In this document: one piece after another, positions 12,445 through 47,351 of the stretch
How the letters are laid out: each line of letters begins with the position of its first letter
Position numbering within the stretch: position 1 is the first letter of the stretch
IMG/VR virus record: IMGVR_UViG_2718218054_000003
Source of the DNA: a virus
DNA length: 64,000 nt
Reading direction: 5' to 3' (one strand)
Made by a program: the position numbers and the translations under genes
Notes under the pieces: model-generated
Seen by the model: the letters and a program-made list of their open reading frames with translations, nothing else
Told to the model about the DNA's origin: nothing
Databases searched by the model: none

Positions 12445-12511
12445 CCTGCTGGCGCCGCCGCGGCCACCGCACGCGGCGGCACCATTCAACCGACTGTCCA
12501 CGGAGGACACC

Positions 12512-13267
12512 GTGTCCAACTCCGAACCTGCGAAGACCTTCCGGATCGGCGTCACTCTGGAAGGCGGCTCCCTTCACGCGGTGGCGCCCATACCTCCGGA
12601 GATGGTGCTGGCGTGGCTCAGCTACGTGCCGGCCGAGTGCGGCGCCGCAGTGCAGATCGCCCACGACTGGGGTCTCTTCGAACGCGGCAACGAGCGGATC
12701 GACCGGCTCGGCGCGTGCGCGCACTGCGCCTGGTCCGTCGCGCTCGCTACCAGCACCACGCAACGCGAACTCGTCGCGCTCAACCCGGCATCCGCCGCAG
12801 AGCACGATGCGCTCGTCCGGCTGCACCCACGACCGTTCCTGTACCTGGACATCTGCCGATTCCTGCTGAAGGACATCGAGGAACACGGCCCCGACAGCGG
12901 CCGCTTCATCCAGGCGTTGACCATCGCGACCCGGCATCGGCCGGTCGTGCTGCTCGACACGCTGTGCACCGAGGACTCGTGCGACCACGACGAGAAGCCA
13001 CAGGGCTGCTACGCCGACGCGGACACGGTGGCGTGCAGGGAATGCACGATCAGCGCGGGCCCGTGGGCCGGCGCGTACGAGGGCTACGTCGAAGTGCTCG
13101 TACTCGCTGAGGACTGCCCGATGCTGCCCGCGATGGCCAAGGCCTACGGCGTCAAGTCGCCTTGCGCGGTGTGCGGGGAGTCGAGCCGCGGCGACACGGA
13201 GCTGTGCAACCTGCACACGCCTCTCCAGGGCAACATCGAGGTGCGGCGCGGGGGTGGTGCGTCGTGA
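12512..13267 (+). CDS. Hypothetical Cys-rich protein
   Basis: GGAGG RBS. Confidence 0.7.
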   Translation: MSNSEPAKTFRIGVTLEGGSLHAVAPIPPEMVLAWLSYVPAECGAAVQIAHDWGLFERGNERIDRLGACAHCAWSVALATSTTQRELVALNPASAAEHDALVRLHPRPFLYLDICRFLLKDIEEHGPDSGRFIQALTIATRHRPVVLLDTLCTEDSCDHDEKPQGCYADADTVACRECTISAGPWAGAYEGYVEVLVLAEDCPMLPAMAKAYGVKSPCAVCGESSRGDTELCNLHTPLQGNIEVRRGGGAS

Positions 13268-13863
13268 GCCTCGCCGAGAATCTCCGCGTCGCCCGCGCCG
13301 CGAGCGGCCTCAGCCAGCAGGCGGTCGCCGACAGCACCGGCATCCCGCGTACCGCAGTCTCCGACATCGAGCACGGTAAGCGCGAGGTCGGGGCGCTGGA
13401 ACTCAAGGCACTCGCGAACCTGTTCGGAACGTCCGCAGACGCGCTGCTCGGCGGGGAACCGCCCCAACTGTCGGCGACTGACCCTGCCACCTTGCTGCGC
13501 GACACGCTCGCCAAGCTGGAGATCACCCAGGCCGAGCTGGCACGCCGCACAGGTCTGTCGGTCAAACACATCAACCAGATCGCACAGGACCTCAAGCCGA
13601 TCAGCTCCATGGTCGCCCTGCGATTCGAACGCGCGACTGGGGTTTCGTCAGCTGAGTGGCATCGCGCGGCAGCCGAGCGACAGGACCGGTTGCTACGGCG
13701 TCGTCCGCGTGTCTGGTGGTCGCCGCGGCTCGGTGTGCTGGAGGAACTGGCGGGAAGCGTCCCGCTGGAAGTGATCCGCGTCGTGACCAACACCGTGCTG
13801 GCCGCGCTGCCCGACGACGCGACGGAGCTGCTCCCCGTAAACCAGAAGGGACTCGCGTCGTGA
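13264..13863 (+). CDS. Tandem XRE-HTH protein (second HTH HigA/VapI-like)
   Basis: LSQQAVADSTGIPRTAVSDIEHGKR; ITQAELARRTGLSVKHINQI. Confidence 0.85.
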   Translation: MSLAENLRVARAASGLSQQAVADSTGIPRTAVSDIEHGKREVGALELKALANLFGTSADALLGGEPPQLSATDPATLLRDTLAKLEITQAELARRTGLSVKHINQIAQDLKPISSMVALRFERATGVSSAEWHRAAAERQDRLLRRRPRVWWSPRLGVLEELAGSVPLEVIRVVTNTVLAALPDDATELLPVNQKGLAS

Positions 13864-14099
13864 GCACGATCCACCGCCAGGAGCGCACCGTTCACTTCGT
13901 CGAGCAGGTTGTGCCCGTGGATCCGGCGTGGGGTGCCTGCTGGGTCGAGGTCTACAAGGCCGTGTCCGCGCTCGTCGCGGAGATGCGCGCGACGGGCCGG
14001 CTGGGCGAGACGCAGGAGCCAGCCGACGACGCGATCCGGTTCCGCATCACCGACGACGAGATCGTCGCCTACTACGAGACCATCAAGGTGACCCGGTGA
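13860..14099 (+). CDS. Hypothetical protein
   Basis: GTGA coupling. Confidence 0.65.
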   Translation: MSTIHRQERTVHFVEQVVPVDPAWGACWVEVYKAVSALVAEMRATGRLGETQEPADDAIRFRITDDEIVAYYETIKVTR

Positions 14100-14620
14100 G
14101 CGCGCCTGAGGAGATCGCCGAGCAGCAGCGTGAGGACGAACTGCGCGGCCAGGTCGAGGCTCGCCCGGAGAGAGCTGCGGACGCGGTCTCGGAGACGATC
14201 GGCCTCGCCGTGGCTGAAGCGTTGGCGCGCGGGGAGTTCGTCGAGCAGCTCGCCGAACGCGGATGGGTGCTCGTGCATGTCGGCGTCGGGTCGTGCCCGG
14301 AACCGCCGAAGGAGTGGCTGCACGACGGCATCGACATCACCGCGCAGGGCTGGCTCGACCCGATTGGGCGGCTGCACGAGCTGTGGCAGACCGCATGGGA
14401 AGCCGGCCGTCGGGCGGGCAGCGACGCGCGTGAACTGGTTGAGCGGGTTCGTGAGGTTGAAACGTTCTTGGAACAGCGAGACGACCTCGTGGCGGAGCTG
14501 CGCCGGCAACTCAAGGCCGCTTGGCGGGGGCAGGCACGCGCCCAACACGCCGCCGGATTGCGGCACGACAAGGACTACTGCGAGTACTGCAAAACCGAGA
14601 CGGTGGTGACACTCCGATGA
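14096..14620 (+). CDS. Hypothetical protein
   Basis: GTGA coupling. Confidence 0.65.
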   Translation: MSAPEEIAEQQREDELRGQVEARPERAADAVSETIGLAVAEALARGEFVEQLAERGWVLVHVGVGSCPEPPKEWLHDGIDITAQGWLDPIGRLHELWQTAWEAGRRAGSDARELVERVREVETFLEQRDDLVAELRRQLKAAWRGQARAQHAAGLRHDKDYCEYCKTETVVTLR

Positions 14621-15240
14621 GGATGTTGACGGTTCGGCAGCCCTGGGCCTGGGCCATCGCCGCAGGCTACAAGACGATCGAGAACCGCACCTGGACGACA
14701 TCGCACTGCGGTGAGCTCGGCATCCACGCCGGCATCCGCTGGGACGACGACCGCGAAGACGCCGTCCGATTCGTGCGCGACACCGCCCGCGCGCTCGGGC
14801 ACACCTTGCCGCACACGATGAAGGACGCGTGGCCGCTCACCTCCAGCGGCTACGTGCTCGCGGTCGTCGACCTGGTCGGCATCTGTGACGTCTCGCTGCA
14901 CCGGCCCGACATCAGCTGCGGCTGCGGACCATGGGCGATCCCCGGCCAGGCCCACTGGCGACTCGAGTCCCCCCGCGTGCTGGACAAGCCGCTGGCGGCC
15001 AAGGGCCAGCTGCAGTTGTGGGAGCTGGACTTCACGTTGGAGGGCCAGCAGTTCACGGCCGCCGAGATCATCGACACCATCCACCACGCCCTGCAGAACA
15101 AGGAAATCCACGCGATCGAGGGGCTGCTCAAGCTGCTCGCGGTCCGGGACCCGGCGGCAGCACAGGACGTGATGGACACGCTGCACCTCGGCATCGTGCT
15201 GGGGCGCCTCAACGACACCGCGAAAGGGATCACGTCGTGA
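14617..15240 (+). CDS. ASCH-domain protein
   Basis: LTVRQPWAWAI..GYKTIENRTW..GELGIHAG; KGQLQLW. Confidence 0.85.
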   Translation: MRMLTVRQPWAWAIAAGYKTIENRTWTTSHCGELGIHAGIRWDDDREDAVRFVRDTARALGHTLPHTMKDAWPLTSSGYVLAVVDLVGICDVSLHRPDISCGCGPWAIPGQAHWRLESPRVLDKPLAAKGQLQLWELDFTLEGQQFTAAEIIDTIHHALQNKEIHAIEGLLKLLAVRDPAAAQDVMDTLHLGIVLGRLNDTAKGITS

Positions 15241-15629
15241 CGGAGCCGAACACCGACCTGCCGCGGCTGGCGCCCGGCACGTACCTGCTCACCAAGCGCC
15301 TCGTGGTCGGCGAGAACGGGTGCAGCGAGTTCGTCGACGAGCCGGTTGGCGAGTACATCAAGGGCTTCTGGCCGCGCACCCGCACGCGGGTCACGCCCGT
15401 CCTGGGCGAGCCGACCGACGAGCTGCCGTTGCGACAGCGCATCGCACGGGCACTGCTCGACTTGTCGCACAACGGCGGCCATGGCGACGACGTGATGGTG
15501 TCCCTGAACGCAGCTGCTGACGCTGTGCTGGCGGTGGTGCAGTCGCAGATCGACCGGTTGGAAGTGGCGCTGGAGACCCAGCAGTCCCTGCCTTCCGCGC
15601 TCGCAGAACAGGAGCGCGACCGTGGATGA
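15237..15629 (+). CDS. Hypothetical protein
   Basis: GTGA coupling. Confidence 0.6.
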   Translation: MTEPNTDLPRLAPGTYLLTKRLVVGENGCSEFVDEPVGEYIKGFWPRTRTRVTPVLGEPTDELPLRQRIARALLDLSHNGGHGDDVMVSLNAAADAVLAVVQSQIDRLEVALETQQSLPSALAEQERDRG

Positions 15630-16038
15630 GAACTTCCCCACCGCGAAGATCGCCGATGCCCTTGGAGGGAAGACCCAAACACTGGCTAATCAGAATTCCG
15701 TGCAGCGGGAAGTCGGCGAGTTGCGCCAAGCCGTCGAGGACCTTGCACATCGCGTCAACGCAGACCCCGCAGGCCGCAAGCCGGACCGCTCCTGGTGCGA
15801 GCCGGTCAGCAACCTCGTGTACGGCGAGTGGGACGTTGCCCGAGACCGGGCGAACATCCGAGTCCGCGCGGGACATACCGACGGCGTGCCGGGCCTGTTC
15901 ATCGTGGACCGCGCGAGCTGGGACATGACACACCTGTCGGTCGCGGACGCATACGACCTGATCGCGGCTCTGGTCGGCGGGATCGCTTACCTGCGGGATG
16001 ACCTGACCGAGCTTCGCGCTAGGAAGGAGCGCCGTTGA
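15622..16038 (+). CDS. Hypothetical protein
   Basis: GGAG RBS. Confidence 0.6.
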   Translation: MDENFPTAKIADALGGKTQTLANQNSVQREVGELRQAVEDLAHRVNADPAGRKPDRSWCEPVSNLVYGEWDVARDRANIRVRAGHTDGVPGLFIVDRASWDMTHLSVADAYDLIAALVGGIAYLRDDLTELRARKERR

Positions 16039-16244
16039 AGACGATCAACTGGGACGCTGTGCGTGCGGCGACACCGGGCTCGGTCACCTGCAACCACTGC
16101 CAGCGTCCGAACATCGTCGTCGTGAACAAGCTGACCGGGCTGCGCGCGCCGCACCGGAACAAGCCGAAGACCCAGCCCGGTCAGAAGCACCCGTGGTGCG
16201 ACGGCGGCAACCGGATGTACGACAGCCTGCCGGAGACGACGTGA
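16035..16244 (+). CDS. Small Zn-ribbon-like protein
   Basis: CNHC..H..WC; AGGAG RBS. Confidence 0.55.
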   Translation: MKTINWDAVRAATPGSVTCNHCQRPNIVVVNKLTGLRAPHRNKPKTQPGQKHPWCDGGNRMYDSLPETT

Positions 16245-16597
16245 CGAGCAACGAAGCCTCGTATCTTGCGGCCTTCGGAGCCCGACTCAAAGAAGCACGG
16301 GAGGCAGCTGGCTGGACCCAGACCGAACTCGCAGACCGGCTCAGCATGACGCGGTCGTCGGTCGCGAACTTCGAAGCTGGCCGACAGCACGCGCCAGTGG
16401 CGATCGCCGCGTTGTGCGCGGACGTCCTGCTGTGCGATCCCGGCTGGCTGCTCTCCGGTCGCACCCTGACGCCCTACCCGGTGCGACCCGCCCTCCGCCC
16501 ATCCGAGCTCGCCGAGGCTGTGCAGGAGGCCGAGCAGTTACACCGCCGCCTGCACGACCTGGCCAACCGACTGAACTCGCCGACCGCGTCGACCTGA
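16241..16597 (+). CDS. XRE-family HTH regulator
   Basis: FGARLKEAREAAGWTQTELADRLSMTRSSVANFEAGRQ. Confidence 0.85.
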   Translation: MTSNEASYLAAFGARLKEAREAAGWTQTELADRLSMTRSSVANFEAGRQHAPVAIAALCADVLLCDPGWLLSGRTLTPYPVRPALRPSELAEAVQEAEQLHRRLHDLANRLNSPTAST

Positions 16598-16672
16598 TCC
16601 CCGCCGACTTCCGCCGCGACATCAACTCCTGATCGACCTCTCCGGCTCGACCACCAGCTGAGGAGCTTCCAC

Positions 16673-16990
16673 ATGTTCAACCAACCGACCGACCGTGACT
16701 GGCGCGCCAAGGGCTACTGCAAGTACGAGGACCCCGAACTCTTCTTCGCCACCGGGAACAGCGGCCCCGCCCTGCTCCAGATCGCCGAGGCGAAGGCCGT
16801 CTGCCGCCGCTGCCCCGTCACCTCCGAGTGCCTCGCGTGGGCGCTGGAGAGCGGCCAGGACGCCGGCGTCTGGGGCGGCATGACCGAGGACGAGCGACGC
16901 AATCTGAAGCGGCGGAACAACCGCCGGATCCAGCGTGAGCAGAGCAGTGCTGACCCACTGCCGATCGCCGTTGTCGAGGGTGCGGCGTGA
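16673..16990 (+). CDS. whiB: WhiB-family Fe-S transcription regulator (WhiB1/WblE-like)
   Basis: Four Cys, DPELFF, GVWGGMTEDERR. Confidence 0.95.
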   Translation: MFNQPTDRDWRAKGYCKYEDPELFFATGNSGPALLQIAEAKAVCRRCPVTSECLAWALESGQDAGVWGGMTEDERRNLKRRNNRRIQREQSSADPLPIAVVEGAA

Positions 16991-17541
16991 CCAGGTTGAT
17001 CGCGATGCGCGGACTTCCCGGTTCGGGCAAGTCCACCCGCGCGCATCAGCTCCTCGACGAGGCCGCGGTCGGCACCATGGTGCGCTGCGGTCGGGACGAC
17101 TACCGGCGCATGTTGCACGGCCGGCCACGCCACGGCGACCGCGTCTGCGAGGACCAGGTGACGATCGCCCAGCACGCCGCGATCGAGCAGCTCCTCCTCG
17201 CGGGCGTGGACGTGCTCGTCGACGACACCAACCTGTCGCTGCGCAACCTGGAGACCCTCGCCGCGATCGCCTGGCGGTGCGGGGCCGACTTCACGGTGGA
17301 GGACTTCACCCAGGTGCCGCTCGAGGACTGCATCGCCCGCGACGCGCTGCGTGCCGGAGACGAGCGCCTGGGCGCGGACCTGATCCGGGCGATGCACAGC
17401 CGGCACCTCGCGGGCAAGCGGCTGCCGCTCCCGGTCCCGGCGCCGAACGCGACCGCGGACCTGCTGCTGTGCGCGGACGGTCAGTCTTGCGGGCGGCGCT
17501 CGATCACGTACCCGGCCTCGGCGAAACGCTGGGCGAGCTGA
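16987..17541 (+). CDS. Polynucleotide-kinase-like P-loop kinase (AAA_33), no phosphatase domain
   Basis: GLPGSGKST, RDDYR, VDDTNL, CIARD..R. Confidence 0.85.
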   Translation: MTRLIAMRGLPGSGKSTRAHQLLDEAAVGTMVRCGRDDYRRMLHGRPRHGDRVCEDQVTIAQHAAIEQLLLAGVDVLVDDTNLSLRNLETLAAIAWRCGADFTVEDFTQVPLEDCIARDALRAGDERLGADLIRAMHSRHLAGKRLPLPVPAPNATADLLLCADGQSCGRRSITYPASAKRWAS

Positions 17542-17747
17542 TCGACGTCGGCGCTGGTCATCTTCTCGATGAGGCACTTCAGGTGCAGGTCAGATACGCA
17601 CGAGCCGTCGCAGTCGTCGGCGTCGACCTCCACGTAGATCCGGCCGCTGGATGTCTGGAAGGCGCCGGGGATCTCGCCCCTGTGGAAACGGCGGTGGGCC
17701 GTGCGCCAGCTGACGCCCTGCTGCTCGGCCCATTCACGCAGTTTCAC
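17481..17747 (-). CDS. Small HTH regulator resembling the IS607 TnpA/MerR-type N-terminal HTH
   Basis: MKLREWAEQQGVSWRTAHRRFHRGEIPGAFQTSSGRIYV; no resolvase domain. Confidence 0.7.
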   Translation of the reverse strand: MKLREWAEQQGVSWRTAHRRFHRGEIPGAFQTSSGRIYVEVDADDCDGSCVSDLHLKCLIEKMTSADVDQLAQRFAEAGYVIERRPQD

Positions 17748-17753
17748 GGCGCG

Positions 17754-17793
17754 ATCATAACCGCACTTGAGTTGTCATAGAAACTATGACAAC
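17754..17793. promoter_or_regulatory. Operator palindrome and leaderless promoter
   Basis: GTTGTCATAG-AAA-CTATGACAAC 17771-17793; - strand -10 TATGAT 17754-17759 ends 7 nt from GTG 17747. Confidence 0.7.
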
Positions 17794-17840
17794 GTGTACA
17801 CCGATGGCCCCGAACGAGGCCGAGCAGGAAGGACCGAGCA

Positions 17841-19292
17841 GTGAGCAACCGAGCAGGCCGACGCGCACCGAGCTGGTGGGCACGTCGGCGCGCGGAAAAG
17901 CTCCGGCTGCGTAAGCAGGCCGAACTCGACAAGCGCGAGCTCCAGCTCAAGGACATCGAGCTCGCCAAGGCGCATGACGCCTACGAGGAAGAGAAGGTCG
18001 CCCGCGCCGACGCCGCCAAGGAGTCGAAGGCCGCTGCCGCCCGTGCCGCTGTTCGAGCACGCTGGCGCGCATTCCGCAACCGAATCGCCGACGATCGACC
18101 GCTGCTCGCCGCCGTGGTTATGGCTGGCGTCTGCTTGGTCGTCGAATTTGTCGGGCAGCTCATGTTCTACGGCGACCTGAACTGGCCGACGGTGCTTCTT
18201 TTCATGCCGGTGCTGCTTTCGATGATCGTCACTGGCGCCACATGGACATTCGCGATCAACGCCGACTACCTGACCGGTAAGGGTCTTTCTGCGGCGGCTG
18301 ACATCCGCAAGATGTGGTACTGGTCCACCGCTGCGGCAATCATGAACGGCTACCACGGCGTCGTCCGTCTCCATGAGCTTTCCGTCGGCATCGTTCTCGG
18401 ATCCGCCTCTCTCGTCGGCCCGTACATCTGGCACCGCTACGTCACCCTGCAGAAAGTCGCGAAATCCGGGCGCACCGCCGACCAGATCCGCGCCGCACTC
18501 CTCCGGCGTCTTTTCCACCCATTCCTCTGGCGCCGGGCCGTCGACCTGTGGGCTGCAGCCGACGGGGCCATGACGGCATCGACGGCATGGCGCATCACCT
18601 GGGCTCAGGTGATGGGCGCCGCTCCTGGCACCCCGAGAGCGGGCGCGGTCACGCCGGCGCGCAACCAGTGGCTGTTCCGACTGGTGTTCGGGCGCGTCGT
18701 CAGCCCGCCGTCAGCTGCCGTGGTGAGCGCTCCTCCCGCGCGCTCACCACGGCACTCGGAGGCGCTCCAGAAGCGCGCCGAGGAGCGCTCCATCACGGGA
18801 GCGGCGGTGAGCGAGAGCGCTCAGGGAACGCTCGCGGACGCCACGATCACGGCGGGGATCGACTGCCTCATGCTCGATGTTGAGCAGTGGCTCAAGGGCG
18901 CATCCGACGCTCCTGCAACGGACGAAAAAGCCGCTCCTGAAGCGCTCACCGAAGTGCATCAGGCCAGTTCAGGTGCTGTGAGCGGTGCGGATGAGCGGCA
19001 TTTGGAGAGCGCGTCCGACGTCCGCGACGAGGAGCGCTCTTCGGTGAGCGCCGCTCACCCGGAGGCGAGCGCTCCCCGCTCGTCGAGGAGCGCTCGCCAT
19101 GTGCGGCGGAGCGCGCGCCACGCTCGCCAGGACTTCACTGCGTTGGTGACCGCGTACTTCGAGAAGCGGTTGGCTGCGGGTGCTCGCGCAGACGAGATCA
19201 CCGGGCCGGAAGCAGCGCAGGCGACGGGGGCGTCGGAGCAGCATGCGCGCAAGGTGCTCGCCAAGCTCCGGAAGAAGCAGGACGAGCGATGA
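17841..19292 (+). CDS. Spd/DUF2637-like membrane protein with C-terminal HTH
   Basis: About 4 TM helices, low-complexity linker, C-terminal ITGPEAAQATGASEQHARKVL; upstream of TraB. Confidence 0.6.
   Translation: MSNRAGRRAPSWWARRRAEKLRLRKQAELDKRELQLKDIELAKAHDAYEEEKVARADAAKESKAAAARAAVRARWRAFRNRIADDRPLLAAVVMAGVCLVVEFVGQLMFYGDLNWPTVLLFMPVLLSMIVTGATWTFAINADYLTGKGLSAAADIRKMWYWSTAAAIMNGYHGVVRLHELSVGIVLGSASLVGPYIWHRYVTLQKVAKSGRTADQIRAALLRRLFHPFLWRRAVDLWAAADGAMTASTAWRITWAQVMGAAPGTPRAGAVTPARNQWLFRLVFGRVVSPPSAAVVSAPPARSPRHSEALQKRAEERSITGAAVSESAQGTLADATITAGIDCLMLDVEQWLKGASDAPATDEKAAPEALTEVHQASSGAVSGADERHLESASDVRDEERSSVSAAHPEASAPRSSRSARHVRRSARHARQDFTALVTAYFEKRLAAGARADEITGPEAAQATGASEQHARKVLAKLRKKQDER
18725..19095. 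repeat. Intragenic cluster of the palindromic octamer GAGCGCTC
   Basis: Perfect copies at 18725, 18783, 18815, 19032, 19067, 19088 plus many half-sites. Confidence 0.8.
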
Positions 19293-19522
19293 AAACGGAA
19301 CGGACAGGTTCCGCAAAGCCGGACAGGACCGCCCAGCACTGGGCTGGCCGATACGCGTCCGCCACCACGCCCGCGGCACAAGCGGCCGTCGAGTGGGACC
19401 GAGCGCGGGCCGCGGTGAGGGACCTGCCGGAGCAACAGCAGAAGCAGGCGTGGCGCGAGCTGGCAGCCAAGCTGCGGGACATCGCGCTCGGTATCGAGGC
19501 GGGACCCCGTGACTCGCGGTGA
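19289..19522 (+). CDS. Small helical hypothetical protein (transfer module)
   Basis: ATGA coupling. Confidence 0.6.
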   Translation: MKTERTGSAKPDRTAQHWAGRYASATTPAAQAAVEWDRARAAVRDLPEQQQKQAWRELAAKLRDIALGIEAGPRDSR

Positions 19523-19651
19523 TGTTCACGGTGAATTTCACGCCCGGCGGACGGGGCGGGGGAGGGCACACCGCGCGCGAGCGCGCCCGCGCGCACGAGA
19601 CCGCAGGGTAACGACCAACACGGAACGTAGTCAAGGAAGGAGAGCGACAAC

Positions 19652-20158
19652 ATGACCGGCACGTGGACCTGGATGAGCGGCGTCACCGGAGCCGTCGGCG
19701 CGATCGCCCTGCTCGTGGCCCTGCTGATGTGGACGGTCGGCGGCCAGATGTGGAGGACGGTCGTACTCGGCCTCACCATCACCGGAGTCGCCGGCATCAT
19801 GGCCACGCCCATCGGACGCTGGCTGCGTTCCCTCGTTGAGTGGCTCGTCAGGCTGTCGACGCCGGTCGGGAAGTACACCGGCGTCGCCTTGATCATCCTG
19901 ATCGCCGTGGCTCTGGCGCTCGTGGTGATCCTCAACGTGTTCGGACAGTTCAGCGGTAAGAACCCCCTCGCCACAGTCCTGTCGAAGCTGGGCGTGAACT
20001 CGGGTAATGGCATCACCGGCCGCACCTTGATCTGCGGCGGAGCTCTCTCGATCACCGCAGGTGTCGTGCCCGGAACAGTGGGAATGGTGCTGACGTGGGT
20101 GCTCGGTGGCGTCGTCCAACTCTTCGCCTGGCTGATCATGGCCGGTTTCGGCCTGTAA
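19652..20158 (+). CDS. Multi-pass membrane protein (transfer module)
   Basis: AAGGAG RBS; 4-5 hydrophobic segments. Confidence 0.75.
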   Translation: MTGTWTWMSGVTGAVGAIALLVALLMWTVGGQMWRTVVLGLTITGVAGIMATPIGRWLRSLVEWLVRLSTPVGKYTGVALIILIAVALALVVILNVFGQFSGKNPLATVLSKLGVNSGNGITGRTLICGGALSITAGVVPGTVGMVLTWVLGGVVQLFAWLIMAGFGL

Positions 20159-20170
20159 TCGGGAGCAACA

Positions 20171-21157
20171 ATGGGATGGCTACTGATCATCTTCGTGATA
20201 GCGCTTTGGTACGCGGTCACGAAGTCCCCGGCGCGTGCTTGGAGCGCGTGGCAGAAGCGCCGTGTGGAGAAAGCCGAGTACAAGGCGCACAAGTCACAGC
20301 TTGTCACCGAAGCGCTCGACAGCGGCCAGGCGCCGGGCCTTGCGCGTGCTGCGGCAAAGGCGGGTGCCAAAGCGGCTGTCACCGTCACGTCGTGGGAAGC
20401 GGTGTGGATCGCTTTCAGAGACGGCTGGCGCGAGAACTGGGCACGTGGAAAGCATCGCGGCGAGACCCTGCGGATGGGTACCGCCGAGCGCCACGTTGAG
20501 GAAGAAGCGCAGATGTGGCCAAACCAGGCGGCCTTCTGCGAGGTGCATCTCGCGCGCACCGCAGCCGATTTCAACAACCTCTGGGAAGCCGGAATGTGCG
20601 CGGAGGAGGTTGATTACGAGGAGTGCCCGGCCGGGCATCTCATTCCGGTCTTCTGCAAGAAAAACCCGTGCCCGGAGCACCTGAGGATTGCTCACAGCGA
20701 GATCGTGCGGGAAGCAAAGGAGCGTGAAGCGAAGGAGCTTGAAGCCCAAGCTGATGACAGTGCTGAACAAGGCAACTCACACCAACACCAGAACAGCAAG
20801 GAGAACCCGGACATGATCGACACCCGCACCGGCGGCGAGGTGCTCACCAAGGAGCAGTACAAGACCGAGATCGAGGCGGTGATTCGCGAGGCCACCGCTG
20901 AGTTGGAGGACGCCCAGGGCGACATCAAGCGCGCGCAGGAGGACGTGGCGCGTGTGGAGACCATGGCGGCCTCGCTGGTCAGCGCCCAGATCGACACGGA
21001 GACCGTCGCCGCCACCCGCAAGCTCGTGGACACGAACCCCGACCGGATGCGGCTCGCGCGCGATCGAATCGCCGCGGCCGAGGGGCGGAAGGCTGCGGCG
21101 GAGGAGTGCCTCAACAAGCTGAACGCCTCCGCGCAGAACAACTTCTACGCAGCCTGA
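20171..21157 (+). CDS. Membrane-anchored coiled-coil protein (transfer module)
   Basis: N-terminal TM; helical C-terminus. Confidence 0.7.
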   Translation: MGWLLIIFVIALWYAVTKSPARAWSAWQKRRVEKAEYKAHKSQLVTEALDSGQAPGLARAAAKAGAKAAVTVTSWEAVWIAFRDGWRENWARGKHRGETLRMGTAERHVEEEAQMWPNQAAFCEVHLARTAADFNNLWEAGMCAEEVDYEECPAGHLIPVFCKKNPCPEHLRIAHSEIVREAKEREAKELEAQADDSAEQGNSHQHQNSKENPDMIDTRTGGEVLTKEQYKTEIEAVIREATAELEDAQGDIKRAQEDVARVETMAASLVSAQIDTETVAATRKLVDTNPDRMRLARDRIAAAEGRKAAAEECLNKLNASAQNNFYAA

Positions 21158-21241
21158 GGCACTGAGCGTGCTGGCAGCCCATCGGCCTTCTTCAGGTCGG
21201 TGGGCTGCCAGGACACCTCAGCACCTAGGACGGAGCCGACC

Positions 21242-21463
21242 ATGTTGCGACACCGCCTCAGCACCGACGAGCGCGTCAACGCTGCCCTCGACGTCATCGA
21301 GAGCGACCTCAAGACGGCCCTCGCGACGACCGCTGCGCAGCTCAACGACCTCCTGCTGACCAAGCCGGACGACACCGAACACGTGCACATGCAGCTGCAG
21401 CGGGTGCACGCGGCGATGGAGCAGATCGACAGCAATCACCGGCGCTACCTGACTCGCGCCTGA
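21242..21463 (+). CDS. Small coiled-coil protein (transfer module)
   Basis: GGAG RBS before ATG 21242. Confidence 0.55.
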   Translation: MLRHRLSTDERVNAALDVIESDLKTALATTAAQLNDLLLTKPDDTEHVHMQLQRVHAAMEQIDSNHRRYLTRA

Positions 21464-21496
21464 TCACCAGCACGAACCCGTTCAGAAAGGACCGCT

Positions 21497-23584
21497 GTGA
21501 ACCCGGATCGCGTGCCACCGACTGCCGCGACCCACTACGTGCGGCCCAACTACTCCCAGCTCCGCAAGGAGATGAAGCGCGCCGGGTGGAGCCGCAAGCG
21601 GCGCGCAGCGGCATGGGTGGGCCGCAACGCTGTACGCGGTGCGCGGGCTGGCATCCGCACCGGCTACCGGCACCGATCCCGACTCTGGCCCATCATCGCC
21701 GCCAGCGGCATGTTCGCCGCCTCCGCAGGCCTCAGCTTCGCCGAGGACGGCTGGAAGACCGCGCTCGTGCTCAGCGTGATCGCCGGCGTGGTCCTCGGCT
21801 GGAACCAGTACTGGGCATGGCGCGCGTTCGAGGAGTGGATGCTGCGCTCGCTGGTGGTCTCGTGGATCGTCTGGGCAGCGGCGACGACCTGGACCGTGAC
21901 CGCCTCCGCCATCAGCCCGTTCACGACCCCGATGCCCGGTCTGCTGCTCACCGCGGCACTCGGCCTCGAGGCATGGTGGGTGATCCACCGGCACATCCGC
22001 GACACCCAGCACGCGGTAGAGACCGTCGAGGAGGAGCTGCCCAACCGGATCCTCGACCAGCGCGTCGAGGCCTGGATGACGAACATCGCGTGCGAGGGCG
22101 GTGCGCTGCCCGGCTCGATGTTGGTCGGCGTCGACGACCTGCGGGACGACGAGGGCATGCCCACCGGCCGCGGCTGGGAGGCGCTCATCCAGCTGCCGCT
22201 CACCGACGCCCAGAACAGCGAGTCCGCAGTGGCCGCCGCGCGCCGCATCGCGAAGGTCTACCGGGTGCCAGCGTCCCAGGTCGTCGTCGAGCCGCCCCTT
22301 GACGGCATGGAGGACGTCGCACGGCTGCTCGTGCTCACCGACAACCCGCTGATGAAGCCGCGCACGTTCGAGGGCCCGACGCTCAACGACACGACCGGCG
22401 AGTTCGAGATCGGTGTCCACGCTGACCGCACCTCGGCGCTGTGGCGGCTCTGGACACCAGGCTCCGGCGTCAACCACGGCATGGTCGCCGGCACCACCGG
22501 CGCAGGCAAGTCCGGCCTGCTCATGAACCTGTGCGCGGAGATCCGCCACAGCGGACGCGCGCTGCTCCTTCTCGCCGACCCGGAAGGCGGCGAGTCCGTC
22601 CGGGACTGGCAGCTCGGCGCGCACTGCTTCGCCGGCACGCTACCCAGGATCCGGCGGATGCTGCAGGGCGCCGAACGGATCATGAACGCGCGGAAGCGCC
22701 GTCGCTCGAAGGAGACGTGGGTCGACGAGCACGGCCGCACCCGTCGCGGGCGGGGGTACTTCACGCCGACACCCGAGGACCCCGCGGTGTACTGCGTGAT
22801 CGACGAGGCGCCCGACGTGCTCGCCGACCCCGAGTGCCGGCGGATCATCGCCGCGATCGGCAAGAAGGGCCGCAAGCACGGCGTCGCCGTGATCATCTTC
22901 GTGCAGATCCCGTCGCTCAGCGAGCTCGGCGGCGACCTCGCCGTCCGCTCGATGCTGTCCTCGACCAACATCGTCATCTTCCGTACCTCCGACTCGCTGT
23001 CCGCGCAGATGGGCGTGCCGATGCAGCTGCCCATCGACCCCGCCAGCTTGCCCGCGGTCTTCCCCGACGGCTCCAGCACCGCAGGCCTCGGCTACCGGGC
23101 GAGCGCTGGCGGCCGGGTCTCGCCGATGCGGGCCGCGTGGCAGGAGGACCCGTACGTGTGGGCCACGACCGGCGACCCGGCCCCGATCCCGGCCGCCGAC
23201 CACGCGGCGATGGCCGACGAGCAGGGCAACCTGTTCGACAACTGGCGCGAGCTGCTCGACGTCGACGAGGACGACGAGGCAGAAGCCCGCGAGACGATCG
23301 CCGCGAACCTCGCGGACTCCGGGGTGCAGGTGCCGCCGAAGACCAACGAGCGGATCCTGGCGTTCCTGGTGGCTCGCCGGAGCCTGGGCCAGCAGGCTGT
23401 GCGGCTCGGCGTCATCGCGGACAAGCTCGACCTCTCCAAGCCTGCAGTGTCGATGGCGGTCAAGCGGATGTGCGCGAAGACGCCGCCGCTGGTCAAGGAC
23501 ATGGGGCACGGGCTGTGGGGACTCAGCGAACATGTTGACGTAGTCGACGGCGAGCTGGTCGGCACGGCGGCGGGCGTCGCCTAG
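21497..23584 (+). CDS. traB: FtsK/SpoIIIE-family conjugative DNA translocase (TraB-like)
   Basis: N-terminal TMs, Walker A GTTGAGKS, Walker B CVIDEA, GRKHGV arginine finger, C-terminal wHTH. Confidence 0.85.
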   Translation: MNPDRVPPTAATHYVRPNYSQLRKEMKRAGWSRKRRAAAWVGRNAVRGARAGIRTGYRHRSRLWPIIAASGMFAASAGLSFAEDGWKTALVLSVIAGVVLGWNQYWAWRAFEEWMLRSLVVSWIVWAAATTWTVTASAISPFTTPMPGLLLTAALGLEAWWVIHRHIRDTQHAVETVEEELPNRILDQRVEAWMTNIACEGGALPGSMLVGVDDLRDDEGMPTGRGWEALIQLPLTDAQNSESAVAAARRIAKVYRVPASQVVVEPPLDGMEDVARLLVLTDNPLMKPRTFEGPTLNDTTGEFEIGVHADRTSALWRLWTPGSGVNHGMVAGTTGAGKSGLLMNLCAEIRHSGRALLLLADPEGGESVRDWQLGAHCFAGTLPRIRRMLQGAERIMNARKRRRSKETWVDEHGRTRRGRGYFTPTPEDPAVYCVIDEAPDVLADPECRRIIAAIGKKGRKHGVAVIIFVQIPSLSELGGDLAVRSMLSSTNIVIFRTSDSLSAQMGVPMQLPIDPASLPAVFPDGSSTAGLGYRASAGGRVSPMRAAWQEDPYVWATTGDPAPIPAADHAAMADEQGNLFDNWRELLDVDEDDEAEARETIAANLADSGVQVPPKTNERILAFLVARRSLGQQAVRLGVIADKLDLSKPAVSMAVKRMCAKTPPLVKDMGHGLWGLSEHVDVVDGELVGTAAGVA

Positions 23585-23607
23585 CAGCGCCTGCGACGCT
23601 TCACGGG

Positions 23608-23638
23608 CCTGCCCCTGCCGGTAACGGTCAGGGGCAGG
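23608..23638 (+). terminator. Hairpin after traB
   Basis: CCTGCCCCTG/CAGGGGCAGG stem, GTAA tetraloop. Confidence 0.55.
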
Positions 23639-23683
23639 TCAACGACTACTTGGGGTGCACCGCCGACCACAGTAGGAGACCAC

Positions 23684-24145
23684 GTGAAGCCCATCGTGCT
23701 CGCTGCCGCAGCCATACTCGCTCTCGCCGGCTGCTCCAGCAGCTCGACCAGCACGCTCACTGCCGAGCAGGTCACGCAGAAGCTCACCGAGCGGATCCCA
23801 ACCGTCTCGCTCACCAAGGCGTACACCGCGGAGGACGACCCGAACAAGCTCCTCGGCCGGCCCAACATGTACACGTCGAAGGTCGCGTTCGCGGACTCGC
23901 GCGTGCCAGCCGAGGGACTGCCGGACGACAAGACCCAGGTTGAGCACGGCGGTGGCGTCGAGGTCTTCCCGGACGAGGCTGGCGCGACCGCGCGCATGAA
24001 GCAGATCCAGGAGATTTCGAAGAACCTGGGCGGCATGATCTCCGAGTACGACTACGTCCGGGGCGGCGTGCTGGTGCGGGTCTCGAGCAAGCTGACGCCG
24101 GACCAGGCCAAGGAGTACGAAAGCGCGCTAGCCGCGATCCAGTAG
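23684..24145 (+). CDS. Lipoprotein
   Basis: Signal peptide with LAGC lipobox. Confidence 0.85.
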   Translation: MKPIVLAAAAILALAGCSSSSTSTLTAEQVTQKLTERIPTVSLTKAYTAEDDPNKLLGRPNMYTSKVAFADSRVPAEGLPDDKTQVEHGGGVEVFPDEAGATARMKQIQEISKNLGGMISEYDYVRGGVLVRVSSKLTPDQAKEYESALAAIQ

Positions 24146-24170
24146 CTGCGCTGCTGGCAAGATTCGCGCC

Positions 24171-24389
24171 GTGACGAACAAGTGGGAGCTGGTGGACGCG
24201 CTGCCCGGCGAGCTCGACGAGACGAAGGCCGTCGTGTGGCGCCAAGTCGAGCAGGAGAACGTGCTGCAGCTCGGCGGCAGGCACCTGGTGTTCGGCGACG
24301 AGGTCTGGCAGCAGCGAGACGATGGCCGGTGGCAGCGCAGCGCCATGACGCTGGCCGACCTGGTGCCCCCGGGATGGGAGCGCGTGTAG
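24171..24389 (+). CDS. Small Trp-rich protein, paralog of 27679-27951
   Basis: Shared W..V..LP..LD, LGG..LV..D.VW.Q, W.RS pattern. Confidence 0.6.
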   Translation: MTNKWELVDALPGELDETKAVVWRQVEQENVLQLGGRHLVFGDEVWQQRDDGRWQRSAMTLADLVPPGWERV

Positions 24390-24402: not shown

Positions 24403-24435
24403 AGCGGCCCCGGACCACATCGGTCCGGGGCCGCT
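24403..24435. terminator. Hairpin between convergent genes
   Basis: Perfect 14-bp stem AGCGGCCCCGGACC/GGTCCGGGGCCGCT. Confidence 0.75.
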
Positions 24436-26689: not shown

Positions 26690-26968
26690 TCACTCGCCGA
26701 AAAACTCGCCCTCGAAGACCAGGAAGTCCTTGCGCTCGCCGCCGACCGGGATCGCGGCCTCCATGACCTCGGAGTCGTTGCGGCTGCGGTCCGAGCTGGG
26801 CAGCAGGTGCACGAACCCGGTCTTGGTCATCTCCAGGATCGTCGCGTCGACGACCTCGCGGGGGAGGTCGAGCTGCTCGCGCAGGTCGAGCAGAGCGACG
26901 GGGAGCTGCATGACGTCCTTGGCGAGGTCGAGGTAAGTGGCGGCGATGAGGGCGGCGGTCGAGTTCAT
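26690..26968 (-). CDS. Small winged-helix-like protein
   Basis: GGAGG RBS; V.L..LR..L.LPR..VD..I pattern. Confidence 0.6.
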   Translation of the reverse strand: MNSTAALIAATYLDLAKDVMQLPVALLDLREQLDLPREVVDATILEMTKTGFVHLLPSSDRSRNDSEVMEAAIPVGGERKDFLVFEGEFFGE

Positions 26969-26995
26969 GGTGTCCTCCGGGGCTCGTGGTAAGAC

Positions 26996-27103
26996 CATCA
27001 TGCTCGACGGTCGAGCGTTATACAAGCCTCAGGGAGGAGCGCCACTCGAACGGCGCAACCTTGAGTCGAAGCCTTGTCGCTTGCTCGACCGTCGAGCATG
27101 ATG
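26996..27103. promoter_or_regulatory. Mirror-image divergent promoters with palindromic operators
   Basis: 21-bp inverted repeat CATCATGCTCGACGGTCGAGC (26996-27016) / GCTCGACCGTCGAGCATGATG (27083-27103); TTGTCG-N17-CATGAT (+), TTGTAT-N17-CATGAT (-). Confidence 0.75.
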
Positions 27104-27108: not shown

Positions 27109-27447
27109 ATGACCGACGCCGCACACGCCAACCCAGTCGCCACGATCAGAGCCGACGCCCGCATCGTGGCCGACATGACCGCAGCCGAGTTCGACCACTC
27201 CCTCGCAACGGGAGACGGCCAAGCACTTGCGGCCATGAACGAAGCCAGCTACCGCCTCGCCAACGCCACCTACCCCGCGGTGCAGCCGGGCGACGGGGAA
27301 GAGGTCCTGCGACAGCGCACCGAGCGGGCGCAAGCCCTGTGGCAGCAGGTCTGGCCGGAGATCGAGGCGATGGTCACGCGCGCCAAGGCGATGGAGTTCA
27401 GCGGCTGGTCGTCTGCCAGCTCCGGTCCGATCCGGTACGCCCGGTGA
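27109..27447 (+). CDS. Hypothetical protein (likely leaderless)
   Basis: ATG 7 nt after -10 box. Confidence 0.65.
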   Translation: MTDAAHANPVATIRADARIVADMTAAEFDHSLATGDGQALAAMNEASYRLANATYPAVQPGDGEEVLRQRTERAQALWQQVWPEIEAMVTRAKAMEFSGWSSASSGPIRYAR

Positions 27448-27668
27448 CCGACCCCGAGGTGTGGACCACACCGGAGGTCGCGAAGTTCTGCGGTATCAAA
27501 GACACCGTGGTGTCCAACCGCATGATCCGACTTGGTGTGCCCGTCTACGACCGCGAACCCGGCCGCGCCGGCCGCAACCGCTACCTCGCGAACCTCGTTC
27601 GTGACGCTGTCGCCAAGGCGCCCGGCAAGGGCAACCGCACCCCGAGGAAGCCGGCGCCACCGACGTAG
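27444..27668 (+). CDS. Small HTH (excisionase/MerR-like) protein
   Basis: WTTPEVAKFCGIKDTVV..R. Confidence 0.65.
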   Translation: MTDPEVWTTPEVAKFCGIKDTVVSNRMIRLGVPVYDREPGRAGRNRYLANLVRDAVAKAPGKGNRTPRKPAPPT

Positions 27669-28512: not shown

Positions 28513-29121
28513 CTACGGCTGCCGTGCGTCCCCTTGGGTCGGCAGCCCGCTTGTGTTAAAGCCATGATGGGACCACCACCAAGTCCGTTGCGGCACATGA
28601 ACAATCTTGGCGCCAAGTCGCACGCAGTCGAGGGTGAAGAACCAGTCCTCGCCGCCACGCTGCCCGTGGATCATTTCTCCCGCAGACGGCTCGTGGAACC
28701 CGACCTTCTGCGCGAGCTCGGTGCGCACGAGCGTCGTGATCGTCGTCTGAATAGGGTCAGCCGGGTCGAACACCTTCCCGAAGTGCCCCAACGGGTCGCA
28801 GTCGATGTCGTGCCCGTAGGCGTTGCGGACCTGGTAGTACGAGTACACGTAGTCCGCGCCGGTTTCCTCGGCCGCGCGGGCGAGCGTCTCCAGGTGGTGC
28901 GGCATGAACTCGTCGTCGCTGTCGAGGAACGCAACCCACGGTGCGCGAACGGCTTGCAGGCCGCGGTCTCTCGTTCCCCAGGCGCCCTCGCGATGAAGGT
29001 CGATCGGGATGTGCAGCTCGGCCGGCCGAAGGGTCTGAGTCATCACCGACGCGGTGGCGCGGGCGACCATGCCGTTGTCGACGCGGGCCGGGTGGGTGGG
29101 GATGACAACGCCGATGTCCAT
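28513..29121 (-). CDS. Glycosyltransferase family 2 (GT-A)
   Basis: VVIPTH, WVAFLDSDD (DxD), GEDW. Confidence 0.88.
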   Translation of the reverse strand: MDIGVVIPTHPARVDNGMVARATASVMTQTLRPAELHIPIDLHREGAWGTRDRGLQAVRAPWVAFLDSDDEFMPHHLETLARAAEETGADYVYSYYQVRNAYGHDIDCDPLGHFGKVFDPADPIQTTITTLVRTELAQKVGFHEPSAGEMIHGQRGGEDWFFTLDCVRLGAKIVHVPQRTWWWSHHGFNTSGLPTQGDARQP

Positions 29122-33989: not shown

Positions 33990-34002
33990 CGCTCTGTCCT
34001 CC

Positions 34003-46722: not shown

Positions 46723-46764
46723 GGTCGTGCCCTTCAGGCGATGGGGAGGTGGCTGGCACCTGCG

Positions 46765-46836
46765 CCCCATCACGGGCACGCGGGTCGGAGGTCTTGCTGG
46801 GTCCGATCACCGGATGCGGTGGACGCCCATCACGGG
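46765..46836 (-). repeat. Two CCCGTGATGGG mini-hairpins in capsid 5' leader
   Basis: Direct repeat at about 46766 and 46826. Confidence 0.65.
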
Positions 46837-47349: not shown

Positions 47350-47351
47350 CA

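Follow-up and report, generated by a model that had tools for sequence, protein, structure and literature searches.

A plasmid-type tra-spd operon in an apparently temperate siphophage of Lentzea and its possible part in virion-free transfer

A dual lifestyle has reportedly been shown experimentally for pZL12/phage ZL12. Where two papers refer to this Streptomyces plasmid-phage, they call it well-characterised (PMC4487206, PMC5431353). PhiNon1 of Nonomuraea gerenzanensis (record NZ_LT559120, 59,257 bp) exists both as circular DNA and in a form integrated at a tRNA gene (PMC5431353). Among plasmids, the tra-spd loci of Streptomyces pSVH1 and pIJ101 comprise TraB/Tra-KilA, a clt site, SpdB2 and TraR/KorA; TraB alone is enough for plasmid transfer, and Spd proteins drive spreading (PMC4447253). 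The pIJ101 protein SpdA2, small, soluble and 135 aa long, binds a 12-bp palindrome that recurs two to three times in the coding region for SpdA2 itself and is strongly conserved across plasmids (Thoma et al. 2014, PMC4170104). AICEs such as pSAM2, SLP1 and pMEA300 are small, the best-characterised spanning 11-17 kb, and carry a Rep module without virion genes (PMC2440964, PMC3218068).

We analysed a 64,000-nucleotide stretch of viral DNA (the window) from a tailed-virus genome that forms an 87-kb insertion at a tRNA-Asn gene in the chromosome of Lentzea, a mycelial actinomycete. The insertion is bounded by a 41-bp att repeat pair that occurs only twice in the whole genome, and the flanks are contiguous, leaving an empty site, in some 20 out of 30 other Lentzea genomes. 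A preliminary description of the window had placed a conjugation module within an intact siphophage and proposed that the flanks be inspected for integrase, Rep or Par genes. A tyrosine integrase does adjoin the tRNA-Asn, alongside the 41-bp repeats and with YqaJ/RecT in the island flanks. Among the genes scanned in the island, a set that did not include every small ORF, we found neither Rep nor Par; the genes scanned likewise held no GntR-type Kor repressor, and some relatives carry a GntR gene upstream. Elsewhere, the island also encodes a NUDIX protein and a second tyrosine recombinase. The Streptomyces framing of that description stands as an analogy, but the host is Lentzea, a member of the Pseudonocardiaceae, and we know of no studies of TraB-type transfer in Lentzea.

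The module sits between phage early genes and a complete lysis/tail/head/terminase set, as the preliminary description had it. The early genes 5' of the module encode DUF5131, Dam and Dcm methylases, the WhiB-like regulator and the polynucleotide kinase; the last two lie immediately upstream of the module and are its neighbours in the relatives L006, L102, L104 and L105 as well. The features of this phage context are as follows.

16673-16990, plus strand: WhiB-like regulator (Pfam Whib, E 2e-26)
16987-17541, plus strand: polynucleotide kinase AAA_33 (AAA_33, E 3e-17; phrog_505, polynucleotide kinase)
24403-24435, between the two convergent arms: perfect 14-bp inverted repeat with a 5-nt loop (repeat search)
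28513-60388, minus strand: convergent late arm (PHROG and Pfam matches)
28513-29121, minus strand: glycosyltransferase
29601-30788, minus strand: GH25 endolysin
32461-38081, minus strand: minor tail proteins
38078-41425, minus strand: tape measure
45646-46779, minus strand: major capsid
47089-49216, within the late arm: Ro60/tRNA island
54021-54830, minus strand: scaffold
54827-55849, minus strand: minor head
55846-57495, minus strand: portal
57596-59179, minus strand: TerL
59822-60388, minus strand: HTH protein, TerS candidate

The inverted repeat is likely a bidirectional terminator. TerL is about 50% identical to its counterparts in the Streptomyces phages Yara, Dryad and Wentworth. The reading frames for TerL, portal, scaffold, major capsid, tape measure, minor tails, endolysin and integrase are open and att sites are present; judged from its sequence, the siphophage integrated in Lentzea is apparently intact and temperate.

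Between these arms, positions 17481-24389 hold a small divergent HTH gene followed by eight co-directional genes, all open. Our GC3-based gene calls recover the gene list first drawn up for the module and extend the unit by two co-directional genes, at 23684-24145 and 24171-24389.

17481-17747, minus strand: 88-aa HTH protein, MerR/excisionase-like (weak phrog_66 match, E 0.003)
17841-19292, plus strand: membrane protein of predicted SpdB2/DUF2637 fold, 483 aa (AlphaFold model, Foldseek, ESM-atlas)
18725-19116, strandless: array of the palindrome GAGCGCTC, six exact and four one-mismatch copies
19289-19522, plus strand: 77-aa soluble protein, conserved operon member
19652-20158, plus strand: 168-aa polytopic membrane protein, 4-5 hydrophobic segments (hydropathy)
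20171-21157, plus strand: 328-aa protein with N-terminal membrane anchor, Cys-rich middle and C-terminal coiled coil (sequence, hydropathy)
21200-21463, plus strand: 87-aa helical protein, just 5' of the translocase gene
21497-23584, plus strand: TraB-like dsDNA translocase, 695 aa (Walker motifs, NCBIfam plasmid_TraB, model)
23684-24145, plus strand: 153-aa lipoprotein with lipobox LAGC (sequence)
24171-24389, plus strand: 72-aa protein, last gene of the rightward arm

In the translocase, an FtsK-type motor (about 190-560) is followed by an acidic linker and then a wHTH (616-676), with Walker A GTTGAGKS at 332-339 and the Walker B stretch VIDEA at 431-437; G332, G337, K338 and E437 do not vary among 31 homologues, and neither do further residues of the motor domain. 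The model (pLDDT 81) places four long hydrophobic helices at 60-171, a candidate membrane-association region whose mean hydropathy is only 0.3-1.2, and resolves the wHTH helices (616-660) and beta wing (666-676) at pLDDT of about 90; a profile search matched wHTH chains at 592-659. Foldseek aligns the model with FtsK-dsDNA 6t8b (E 2e-13), the structural alignment with pIJ101 Tra spans the full length, the sequence identity to it being 25% around the Walker motifs, and pSAM2 TraSA gives a TM-score of 0.59 (by hit). The best named family for the protein and for all 31 homologues is NCBIfam plasmid_TraB (NF041214), although the score here is 51 bits against an equivalog cut-off of 800 bits, PF01580 falls below its gathering score, and even the best of the 31 relatives (E 2.4e-36 on plasmid_TraB) remains under the cut-off. 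Motifs, fold and top named family thus agree with the TraB-like FtsK ATPase with intact Walker motifs and wHTH originally described, which on sequence grounds is a distant branch of the plasmid_TraB family. Among actinomycete plasmids, 175 hold a homologue, as do just 20 of 400 genomes of the host family; we found none in isolated actinophages or in 24 other Lentzea genomes.

None of the other module proteins reaches a curated family threshold by sequence. For the 483-aa protein there was no match in Pfam, NCBIfam or PHROG and no BLASTP match to pIJ101 SpdB or to a plasmid DUF2637 protein, and hhalign gave a probability of 3% against SpdB2/DUF2637 (PF10935). Its predicted structure consists of a coiled-coil helix (12-84), four hydrophobic helices (86-209), a disordered linker (about 284-429) and a C-terminal three-helix HTH (432-482). 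Foldseek against AFDB clusters returned DUF2637 (E 2e-10) and "SpdB2 protein" (E 5e-6), and about half of the 21 best cluster matches carry one of these two names, at TM-scores of just 0.2-0.3 because of the flexible linker. In the ESM-atlas the protein scores 0.93 to DUF2637-bearing clusters (215 shared features) and 0.82 to SpdB_N/HTH_SpdB_C clusters. The membrane/HTH protein earlier proposed to be Spd-like therefore gains support from its fold, and its predicted fold and architecture, a polytopic membrane domain with a C-terminal HTH, are those of an Spd-like protein.

The 88-aa HTH protein, whose phrog_66 match bears the label "excisionase and transcriptional regulator", has an orthologue with 62% identity in the corresponding position of L102, and an unrelated gene of 62-64 aa takes that position in L006 and L104; by position only, the 88-aa protein is a candidate regulator of the transfer operon. 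The 77-aa gene recurs at the same position in L006, L010-L013, L015 and L016 (38-54% identity, tblastn). The 168-aa membrane protein, kept in the phage-type relatives examined and in the plasmid-type contig L011, is by position a candidate Spd-like protein. Searches of Pfam, PHROG and NCBIfam gave no family match for the 328-aa protein, homologues of which (27-39% identical) precede traB in L006 and L010-L013, including L011; plasmid L005 shows a weak match to its N-terminus. The 87-aa protein is 68% identical in L006, and closer relatives have a 71-95-aa gene in its position. The lipoprotein is 75% identical in L006, with a 153-157-aa gene directly 3' of traB in L102-L105.

The GAGCGCTC array lies inside the gene for the Spd-like protein, over the coding DNA for its disordered linker. 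Six of the seven copies in the 64-kb window fall within it, in all three codon phases, and a cluster of six was reached in none of 60 Markov simulations. L006 and L104 carry the same motif at the same place, and motifs differ where the Spd-like HTH differs. When the arrays of eight loci were compared with the two candidate DNA-binding domains, the Spd-like HTH and the TraB wHTH, the motif class followed the Spd-like HTH and fitted neither TraB helix 3 nor the TraB tree (L006 versus L102/L105); L006 and L102 have nearly identical wHTH helices 3 but different arrays. These sequence comparisons make the array a candidate cis site for the C-terminal HTH of the Spd-like protein, and it resembles SpdA2/sps more than a TraB clt. 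The motif GACCCGGA, which we take to be the clt motif of pSVH1, occurs here at chance level. Since the sole repeat array tracks the Spd-like HTH, no TraB-specific clt is assignable, which leaves it uncertain whether the module is complete, as it had been called.

In nine divergent metagenomic relatives, with TraB identities of 54-70% where measured, the module recurs in the same gene order, and the genes after it are again convergent and encode lysin, holin or tail proteins. A tenth, L010 (TraB 50%), shows only phage-like early genes in the part of it that was read. The TraBs labelled as phage by their context, seven in all, group together in a single clade (SH-aLRT 99), and the plasmid-type one belongs to a neighbouring clade. 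The 77-, 168- and 328-aa genes accompany TraB even in the plasmid-type, ParAB-bearing contig L011, and plasmid NZ_CP106800 has the same order (DUF2637, a 428-aa gene, then a TraB-like gene), its 428-aa gene weakly matching the N-terminus of the 328-aa protein. We consider it very probable that 17481-24389 is a plasmid-type tra-spd operon that is an integral and vertically inherited part of a temperate siphophage at the Lentzea tRNA-Asn.

The operon could mediate transfer as follows. Once the prophage has excised, or while the early genes are being expressed, the Spd-like protein, anchored in the membrane, would bind the array in its own gene via its C-terminal HTH and so tether the phage DNA there; a TraB hexamer would then pump the double-stranded genome via hyphal contacts or septal cross-walls, through a passage formed by the small Spd-like proteins. 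Neighbouring compartments or mycelia would in this way receive the phage genome without virions, and integration or lysis could follow there, while the convergent late arm would yield virions as the second route. We put the probability that this mechanism and the operon's place in the phage both hold at roughly 0.5. Against it, mating may bring little benefit to an 87-kb element whose induction kills the host, homologues are scarce among the Lentzea and host-family genomes searched, the TraB and PF01580 scores are low, no array could be tied to the TraB wHTH, and the genes scanned held no GntR-type Kor repressor, Rep or Par.

A bolder version is possible but doubtful. It holds that an entire lineage of temperate actinophages spreads from hypha to hypha as naked dsDNA, and that recognition of the DNA, which in plasmids falls to the TraB wHTH, is here the task of the membrane-anchored SpdB2-like protein. 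The C-terminal HTH of that protein would read a lineage-specific array in the part of its own gene that encodes the disordered linker, before the genome passes to the TraB motor.

It is rather unlikely that the module acts within one mycelium only, as a spreading or stability device that would carry phage DNA, excised or replicating, past the septal cross-walls and on into spores or fragments, much as SpdA2/sps and SpdB2 stabilise plasmids, with no passage to other individuals. An array inside an spd-type gene that tracks its own HTH is the SpdA2/sps arrangement, loss of SpdA2/sps hit stability and not transfer (PMC4170104), Spd proteins are spreading functions (PMC4447253) and no Par genes were found in the phage, all of which would fit such a role; against this, TraB of plasmids is an intermycelial transfer protein too (PMC4447253), and an integrated prophage is inherited with the chromosome, so that a stability function would matter for the excised form only.

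We regard it as improbable that the TraB-like pump and the proteins encoded with it now serve another, phage-specific purpose, such as superinfection or entry exclusion, host-DNA handling, or defence or counter-defence, without moving the phage's own genome. Entry-exclusion lipoproteins follow transfer genes in other conjugative systems, and a conserved lipoprotein directly follows traB here. Large Bacillus phages unrelated to this one encode FtsK/SpoIIIE-like proteins without an assigned role (phrog_1358, filed under "moron/host takeover"), and HerA/FtsK-type ATPases work in defence systems (PDB matches). The closest sequence relatives, however, are transfer proteins of plasmids rather than proteins from defence systems or Bacillus phages, the ParAB plasmid-type contig has the entire multi-gene operon in common with the phage, and the phage DNA itself carries a candidate cognate cis array.

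That the module is inert cargo or the decaying remnant of a captured AICE or plasmid, as the lack of a Rep or GntR repressor among the genes scanned and the low family scores might suggest, with the NUDIX gene and second tyrosine recombinase as AICE debris, is very unlikely given eight co-directional open genes collinear in relatives down to 50% identity, invariant catalytic residues, and arrays that have been kept up and renewed, the motif varying by lineage. The module does start at a divergent promoter region and end at a strong hairpin, but a small separate element nested in the prophage, which would have undone the original description, has almost no claim on the data, because we found no flanking repeats, own att ends or own recombinase, many divergent phages have the module in exactly this place, between PNK/WhiB and the lysis arm, and the sole att pair spans the entire 87 kb, with the site empty in related genomes.

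If the module works in virion-free transfer, temperate phages of mycelial actinomycetes gain a second, virion-independent transmission route that receptor-based resistance and adsorption barriers would not stop, and the boundary between prophage and AICE is blurred. The eight-locus comparison predicts that the sequence-specific reader in these elements is the SpdB2-type protein and not TraB. Because PF01580 is below threshold here, AICE surveys that use PF01580 or a Rep gene would miss this TraB clade.

Like AICEs, the Lentzea element integrates at a tRNA 3' end by a tyrosine integrase and has a single FtsK-like Tra with Spd genes, as well as a NUDIX gene elsewhere; unlike them, it is an 87-kb island whose virion and lysis genes form a complete set and in which no Rep was recognised among the genes scanned. 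On these grounds we rejected its identity as an AICE, taken as an element of roughly 10-20 kb that combines Int, Rep (RepSA/RepAM/Prim-Pol) and an FtsK-like Tra and is free of virion genes, although Int and Tra are present. Its features in common with pSVH1 and pIJ101 are an FtsK-like TraB whose C-terminus forms a wHTH, an operon of varied small membrane Spd proteins and an SpdB2-type polytopic membrane protein; it differs in that no GntR Kil-Kor partner was found, no 8-bp direct-repeat clt is assignable to TraB and the module is phage-borne. The array recalls SpdA2/sps as a short palindrome repeated within an spd gene, a DNA-imposed motif that surfaces as a short peptide motif, its reader here being a candidate only. 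That candidate is a 483-aa membrane protein, unlike SpdA2, and the motif is 8 bp in 6-10 copies (up to 21 in relatives) and differs between lineages.

PhiNon1 has a similar layout, with a DUF2637 protein, small genes, a 396-aa gene and a 654-aa TraB-like gene, then convergent lysis/tail genes, and portal and terminase elsewhere. Its TraB-like protein is 29% identical to that of the Lentzea phage and lies outside the Lentzea-phage clade; PhiNon1 is smaller, its host family is Streptosporangiaceae, and beyond TraB only part of the tape measure matches (tblastn). The term TraB does not occur in the PhiNon1 paper (PMC5431353). Compared with pZL12 by description, the Lentzea element likewise joins a siphophage virion gene set and an actinomycete conjugal-transfer locus on one replicon, but pZL12 exists as a circular plasmid, free of the chromosome, that carries repA and parAB, whereas the Lentzea element is integrated at tRNA-Asn and no Rep or Par was found among its scanned genes. 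The idea of combining phage and conjugation thus already has its precedent in pZL12, and the gain here is in breadth and mechanism.

An apparently intact, tRNA-integrated Lentzea siphophage carries a TraB/Spd-type transfer operon as one of its conserved parts. Because the G+C content of the window is 68-70%, third-position G+C was used for gene calling, which gave two converging arms, one rightward (808-24389) and one leftward (24451 to ~60755), with a perfect 14-bp hairpin (24403-24435) between them. The module consists of a divergent HTH gene and an operon of eight co-directional genes:

Gene block of the transfer module (window coordinates)
17481-17747, minus strand: HTH gene, 88 aa, divergent from the operon
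17841-19292, plus strand: operon gene 1, Spd-like protein P0002, 483 aa
following, co-directional: operon genes 2-5, encoding 77, 168, 328 and 87 aa, in that order
21497-23584, plus strand: operon gene 6, TraB-like translocase P0001, 695 aa
following, co-directional: operon genes 7-8, a 153-aa lipoprotein, then a 72-aa protein

The early phage region upstream of the module contains genes for DUF5131, Dam and Dcm methylases, FtsK-gamma, WhiB and polynucleotide kinase. Lysis and virion genes occupy the convergent arm: GH25 endolysin, minor tail proteins, tape measure (1115 aa), major capsid, scaffold, minor head protein, portal and large terminase. The gene map of the preliminary description is borne out by these gene calls and family matches. 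A scan for consensus promoters and terminators across the module returned nothing informative, and isolated phages had no megablast match to 15-26 kb.

The early FtsK-gamma protein (7251-7790, 179 aa) carries a C-terminal FtsK gamma domain (Pfam E 7e-11) without a motor domain and is a second FtsK-derived DNA-reading module of the same phage. Four tRNA genes and a TROVE/Ro60 protein gene are found between the capsid and scaffold genes (47089-49216). Four GTCGAGCA/GCTCGACC copies are clustered at 26866-27091, at the divergent promoter region between 26690-27025 (minus strand) and 27109-27668 (plus strand); this cluster is also kept in the metagenomic relative L006 (13763-13855) and is probably the operator set of a switch distinct from the transfer operon.

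The window lies on the minus strand of a single 10.0-Mb contig, at bases 650352-714351; a flanking primase-like gene is 95-96% identical to those of Lentzea jiangxiensis and L. indica. The left flank of the window reads tRNA-Asn gene (-7746..-7672), directly adjoining 406-aa tyrosine integrase, YqaJ and RecT, and the last 41 bp of the tRNA have one further exact copy genome-wide, 87.1 kb away. Given this att pair, and given that the outer flanks are contiguous, just ~45-60 bp apart, in ~20 of 30 other Lentzea genomes (the empty site), the 87 kb constitute one insertion. In Lentzea the tRNA-Asn site serves as a hot spot for integration, and several genomes hold other inserts between the same flanks (about 0.9, 1.2, 1.8, 2, 3.2 and 11.8 kb). 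Of the integrase, Rep and Par genes sought at the flanks, the tyrosine integrase beside tRNA-Asn was found, while no Rep, Par or GntR gene was recognised among the scanned genes of the window and flanks.

Ends and right part of the island (window coordinates)
-7713..-7673: 41-bp att repeat, genome C1:722025-722065
61488-64000 and beyond to 79426 (stretch 61-79 kb): DUF5907/minor-tail-like (tail-fibre-like) gene and NAD epimerase
71032-72033: second tyrosine recombinase
74228-74686: NUDIX hydrolase
77918-78772: XRE/DUF5753 regulator
79427..79467: 41-bp att repeat, genome C1:634885-634925

The right ~18 kb (61-79 kb) could be phage cargo, or an older co-resident or what is left of a different integrative element; a search of the 87-kb island for an att copy inside it, or for a further repeat pair that would split it, found none.

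The refuting alternative named in the preliminary description, a separate element bounded by att ends of its own, is not what was seen: no repeats flanking the module were found, and synteny in relatives argues that it is embedded in the phage, as first described. In L006 (84 kb), the genes run WhiB-PNK-[small minus-strand gene]-504-80-175-299-73-692-153, and behind them come the glycosyltransferase and tail genes known from the window; identities to the window are 33-75% for module proteins and 84-85% for tail proteins. The module is followed by convergent lysin/holin/tail genes in eight more relatives (the P0018 and P0007 contigs, L012, L013, L102, L103, L104 and L105); L010 has phage-like early genes and L011 is plasmid-type. 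In a quick IQ-TREE maximum-likelihood run, all seven context-labelled phage TraBs fell in one clade of 17 (SH-aLRT 99), with the plasmid-type sequence in an adjoining clade and the TraBs of Streptomyces plasmid NZ_CP106800, PhiNon1 and pIJ101 farther out. This TraB clade is rare in cultured Pseudonocardiaceae, with a match in 20 of 400 genomes (best 41% identity) and in 0 of 24 other Lentzea genomes. In IMG/VR, relatives occur on 7 contigs, and Pfam virion hallmarks were present in 2 of the 5 checked.

After its TraB-like gene, L010 (108 kb) carries SsgA, Thg1, two RNA ligases, RlaP and PNKP, a large RNA-repair block (12483-19112); PhiNon1 also has an SsgA gene near its module. Streptomonospora litoralis plasmid phiM2 (NZ_CP036456.1, 90 kb) is a circular 'plasmid' that combines ParB genes with the complete virion set of a siphophage; its large terminase is 46% identical to that of the window; the 41 kb compared gave no match to other module or virion proteins of the window.

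The description of P0001 as a TraB-like FtsK ATPase with intact Walker motifs and a wHTH holds on motifs, NCBIfam and fold, with P0001 placed as a distant branch of the family. Its Walker A GTTGAGKS and Walker B VIDEA stretch are invariant across 31 aligned homologues. All Pfam P-loop matches are sub-threshold, FtsK_SpoIIIE (PF01580) scoring 18 bits against a gathering cut-off of 24, so that AICE and conjugation surveys reliant on PF01580 would miss the entire TraB clade. In NCBIfam, P0001 and each of the 31 homologues have plasmid_TraB as their top named family, with E 8.5e-14 for P0001 and E 2.4e-36 for the best homologue, at scores far under the 800-bit equivalog cut-off in every case. In the AlphaFold model (pLDDT 81), four hydrophobic helices at the N-terminus precede an FtsK-type motor, and a wHTH lies at the C-terminus; Foldseek matched the model to the FtsK motor on dsDNA (6t8b, E 2e-13), TcpA and EccC. 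Among reviewed proteins, pIJ101 Tra is structurally alignable almost end to end (25% identity near the Walker motifs by BLASTP), and pSAM2 TraSA reaches a TM of 0.59 by hit. By tblastn, homologues at ~30% identity occur on 175 actinomycete plasmids, 152 of them from Streptomyces, whereas ~50,000 phage records gave no isolated actinophage and only weak Walker-region matches to Bacillus and Staphylococcus phages.

P0002 is tied to the SpdB2/DUF2637 family solely by fold and embedding searches. It had zero matches in Pfam, NCBIfam and PHROGs, and no similarity to pIJ101 SpdB or a plasmid DUF2637 protein (BLASTP) or to a two-sequence DUF2637 profile (hhalign). Its model comprises a long coiled-coil helix, four hydrophobic helices, disorder over ~284-429 and a confident C-terminal three-helix HTH; its AFDB cluster matches include DUF2637 proteins, starting at E 2e-10, and an 'SpdB2 protein' at E 5e-6, with low TM-scores because of the flexible linker. 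In the ESM atlas it scores 0.93 to clusters with DUF2637 in 13-16% of members and 0.82 to SpdB_N/HTH_SpdB_C clusters. P0002 is therefore Spd-like, as initially proposed, by fold and architecture and not by sequence. Of its partners, the 168-aa protein is polytopic and the 328-aa protein combines a coiled coil with an anchor at its N-terminus; Pfam, PHROG and NCBIfam searches found no named family for either. Gene order on NZ_CP106800 (DUF2637 ... 428-aa ... TraB-like) matches the module, its TraB being 30% identical to P0001 across the full length and its 428-aa gene giving a weak match to the 328-aa gene at the N-terminus. The 77/168/328-aa genes are found alongside TraB in all relatives examined, including the ParAB/GntR plasmid-type contig, and this gene content supports the module genes as a putative functional unit.

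The Spd-like gene itself contains a repeat array. GAGCGCTC occurs seven times in the 64-kb window, six of them within 18725-19095, with four more one-mismatch copies up to 19116, and a cluster of six was reached in 0 of 60 Markov simulations. Since the array encodes the disordered linker (P0002 residues 295-426) and its copies occupy all three codon phases, the constraint acts on DNA. An array is found at the equivalent part of the orthologous gene in every relative with DNA available, and its motif varies:

Array motif and C-terminal helix of the Spd-like protein, by locus
Window, L006, L104: motif GAGCGCTC; helix SEQHARKVLAKLRK
L102, L105: motif (G/C)CGCAACC, 14-21 copies; helix SRQNAAK..(K/R)LRG
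L012, L013: motif GCGGCCGA; helix GGRRK(K/R)A(V/I)YDAV
L010: motif CGTGGCG; helix SESLGRKWFRIW

The 88-aa HTH protein was rejected as array reader, given that the window and L102 regulators are 62% identical and their arrays unlike, and that L006 and L104 share the window's motif without having the regulator. TraB helix 3 is not partitioned by motif: L006 (PAVSNALRRM) and L102 (PATSNALRRM) differ by one residue and have unlike arrays, while L102 and L105 have a common array and separate TraB branches. No clt for TraB was assignable from the module repeats; the pSVH1-type motif GACCCGGA occurs at chance frequency with no cluster. GACGACGA-type clusters within traB of relatives coincide with the position of the Asp/Glu-rich linker of the window TraB and are probably peptide-driven.

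In these alignments the cis array is lineage-specific and tracks the Spd-like HTH, with motif class and HTH concordant without exception across the eight loci. The array lies at most ~500 bp from the HTH-coding segment, so joint inheritance is possible; a TraB reader would still be mismatched in L102. For an array inside an Spd-like gene, the nearest precedent is pIJ101 SpdA2: it binds to repeats of a palindrome within its own gene and affects stability, not transfer (PMC4170104). Because of this precedent and the tracking of motif with HTH, we read the array as a candidate site of the Spd-like protein, a prediction that is the most original testable point of the analysis.

In Streptomyces plasmids, TraB alone is sufficient for dsDNA transfer; its binding sites are the 8-bp direct repeats of clt, its partner is a GntR repressor, and a diverse set of three to seven spd genes drives intramycelial spreading (PMC4447253). 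In AICEs, Int and Rep occur together with an FtsK-like Tra (PMC3218068, PMC2440964). For the Lentzea phage, we infer virion-independent movement of the phage genome between hyphae. The chance that the module has some DNA-moving role for its own phage genome is roughly even, and true intermycelial conjugation has lower odds than that. Conjugative phages are absent from one recent plasmid-mobility review. Papers citing pZL12 present it as a described plasmid-phage with a transfer locus (PMC4487206, PMC5431353). PhiNon1 of Nonomuraea, published as 'reminiscent of pZL12' in a paper that makes no mention of TraB, was shown to be circular and tRNA-integrated (PMC5431353). Like the Lentzea phage, PhiNon1 has a DUF2637 ... 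TraB-like layout adjoining lysis and tail genes, and the Lentzea element belongs with the pZL12/PhiNon1 kind.
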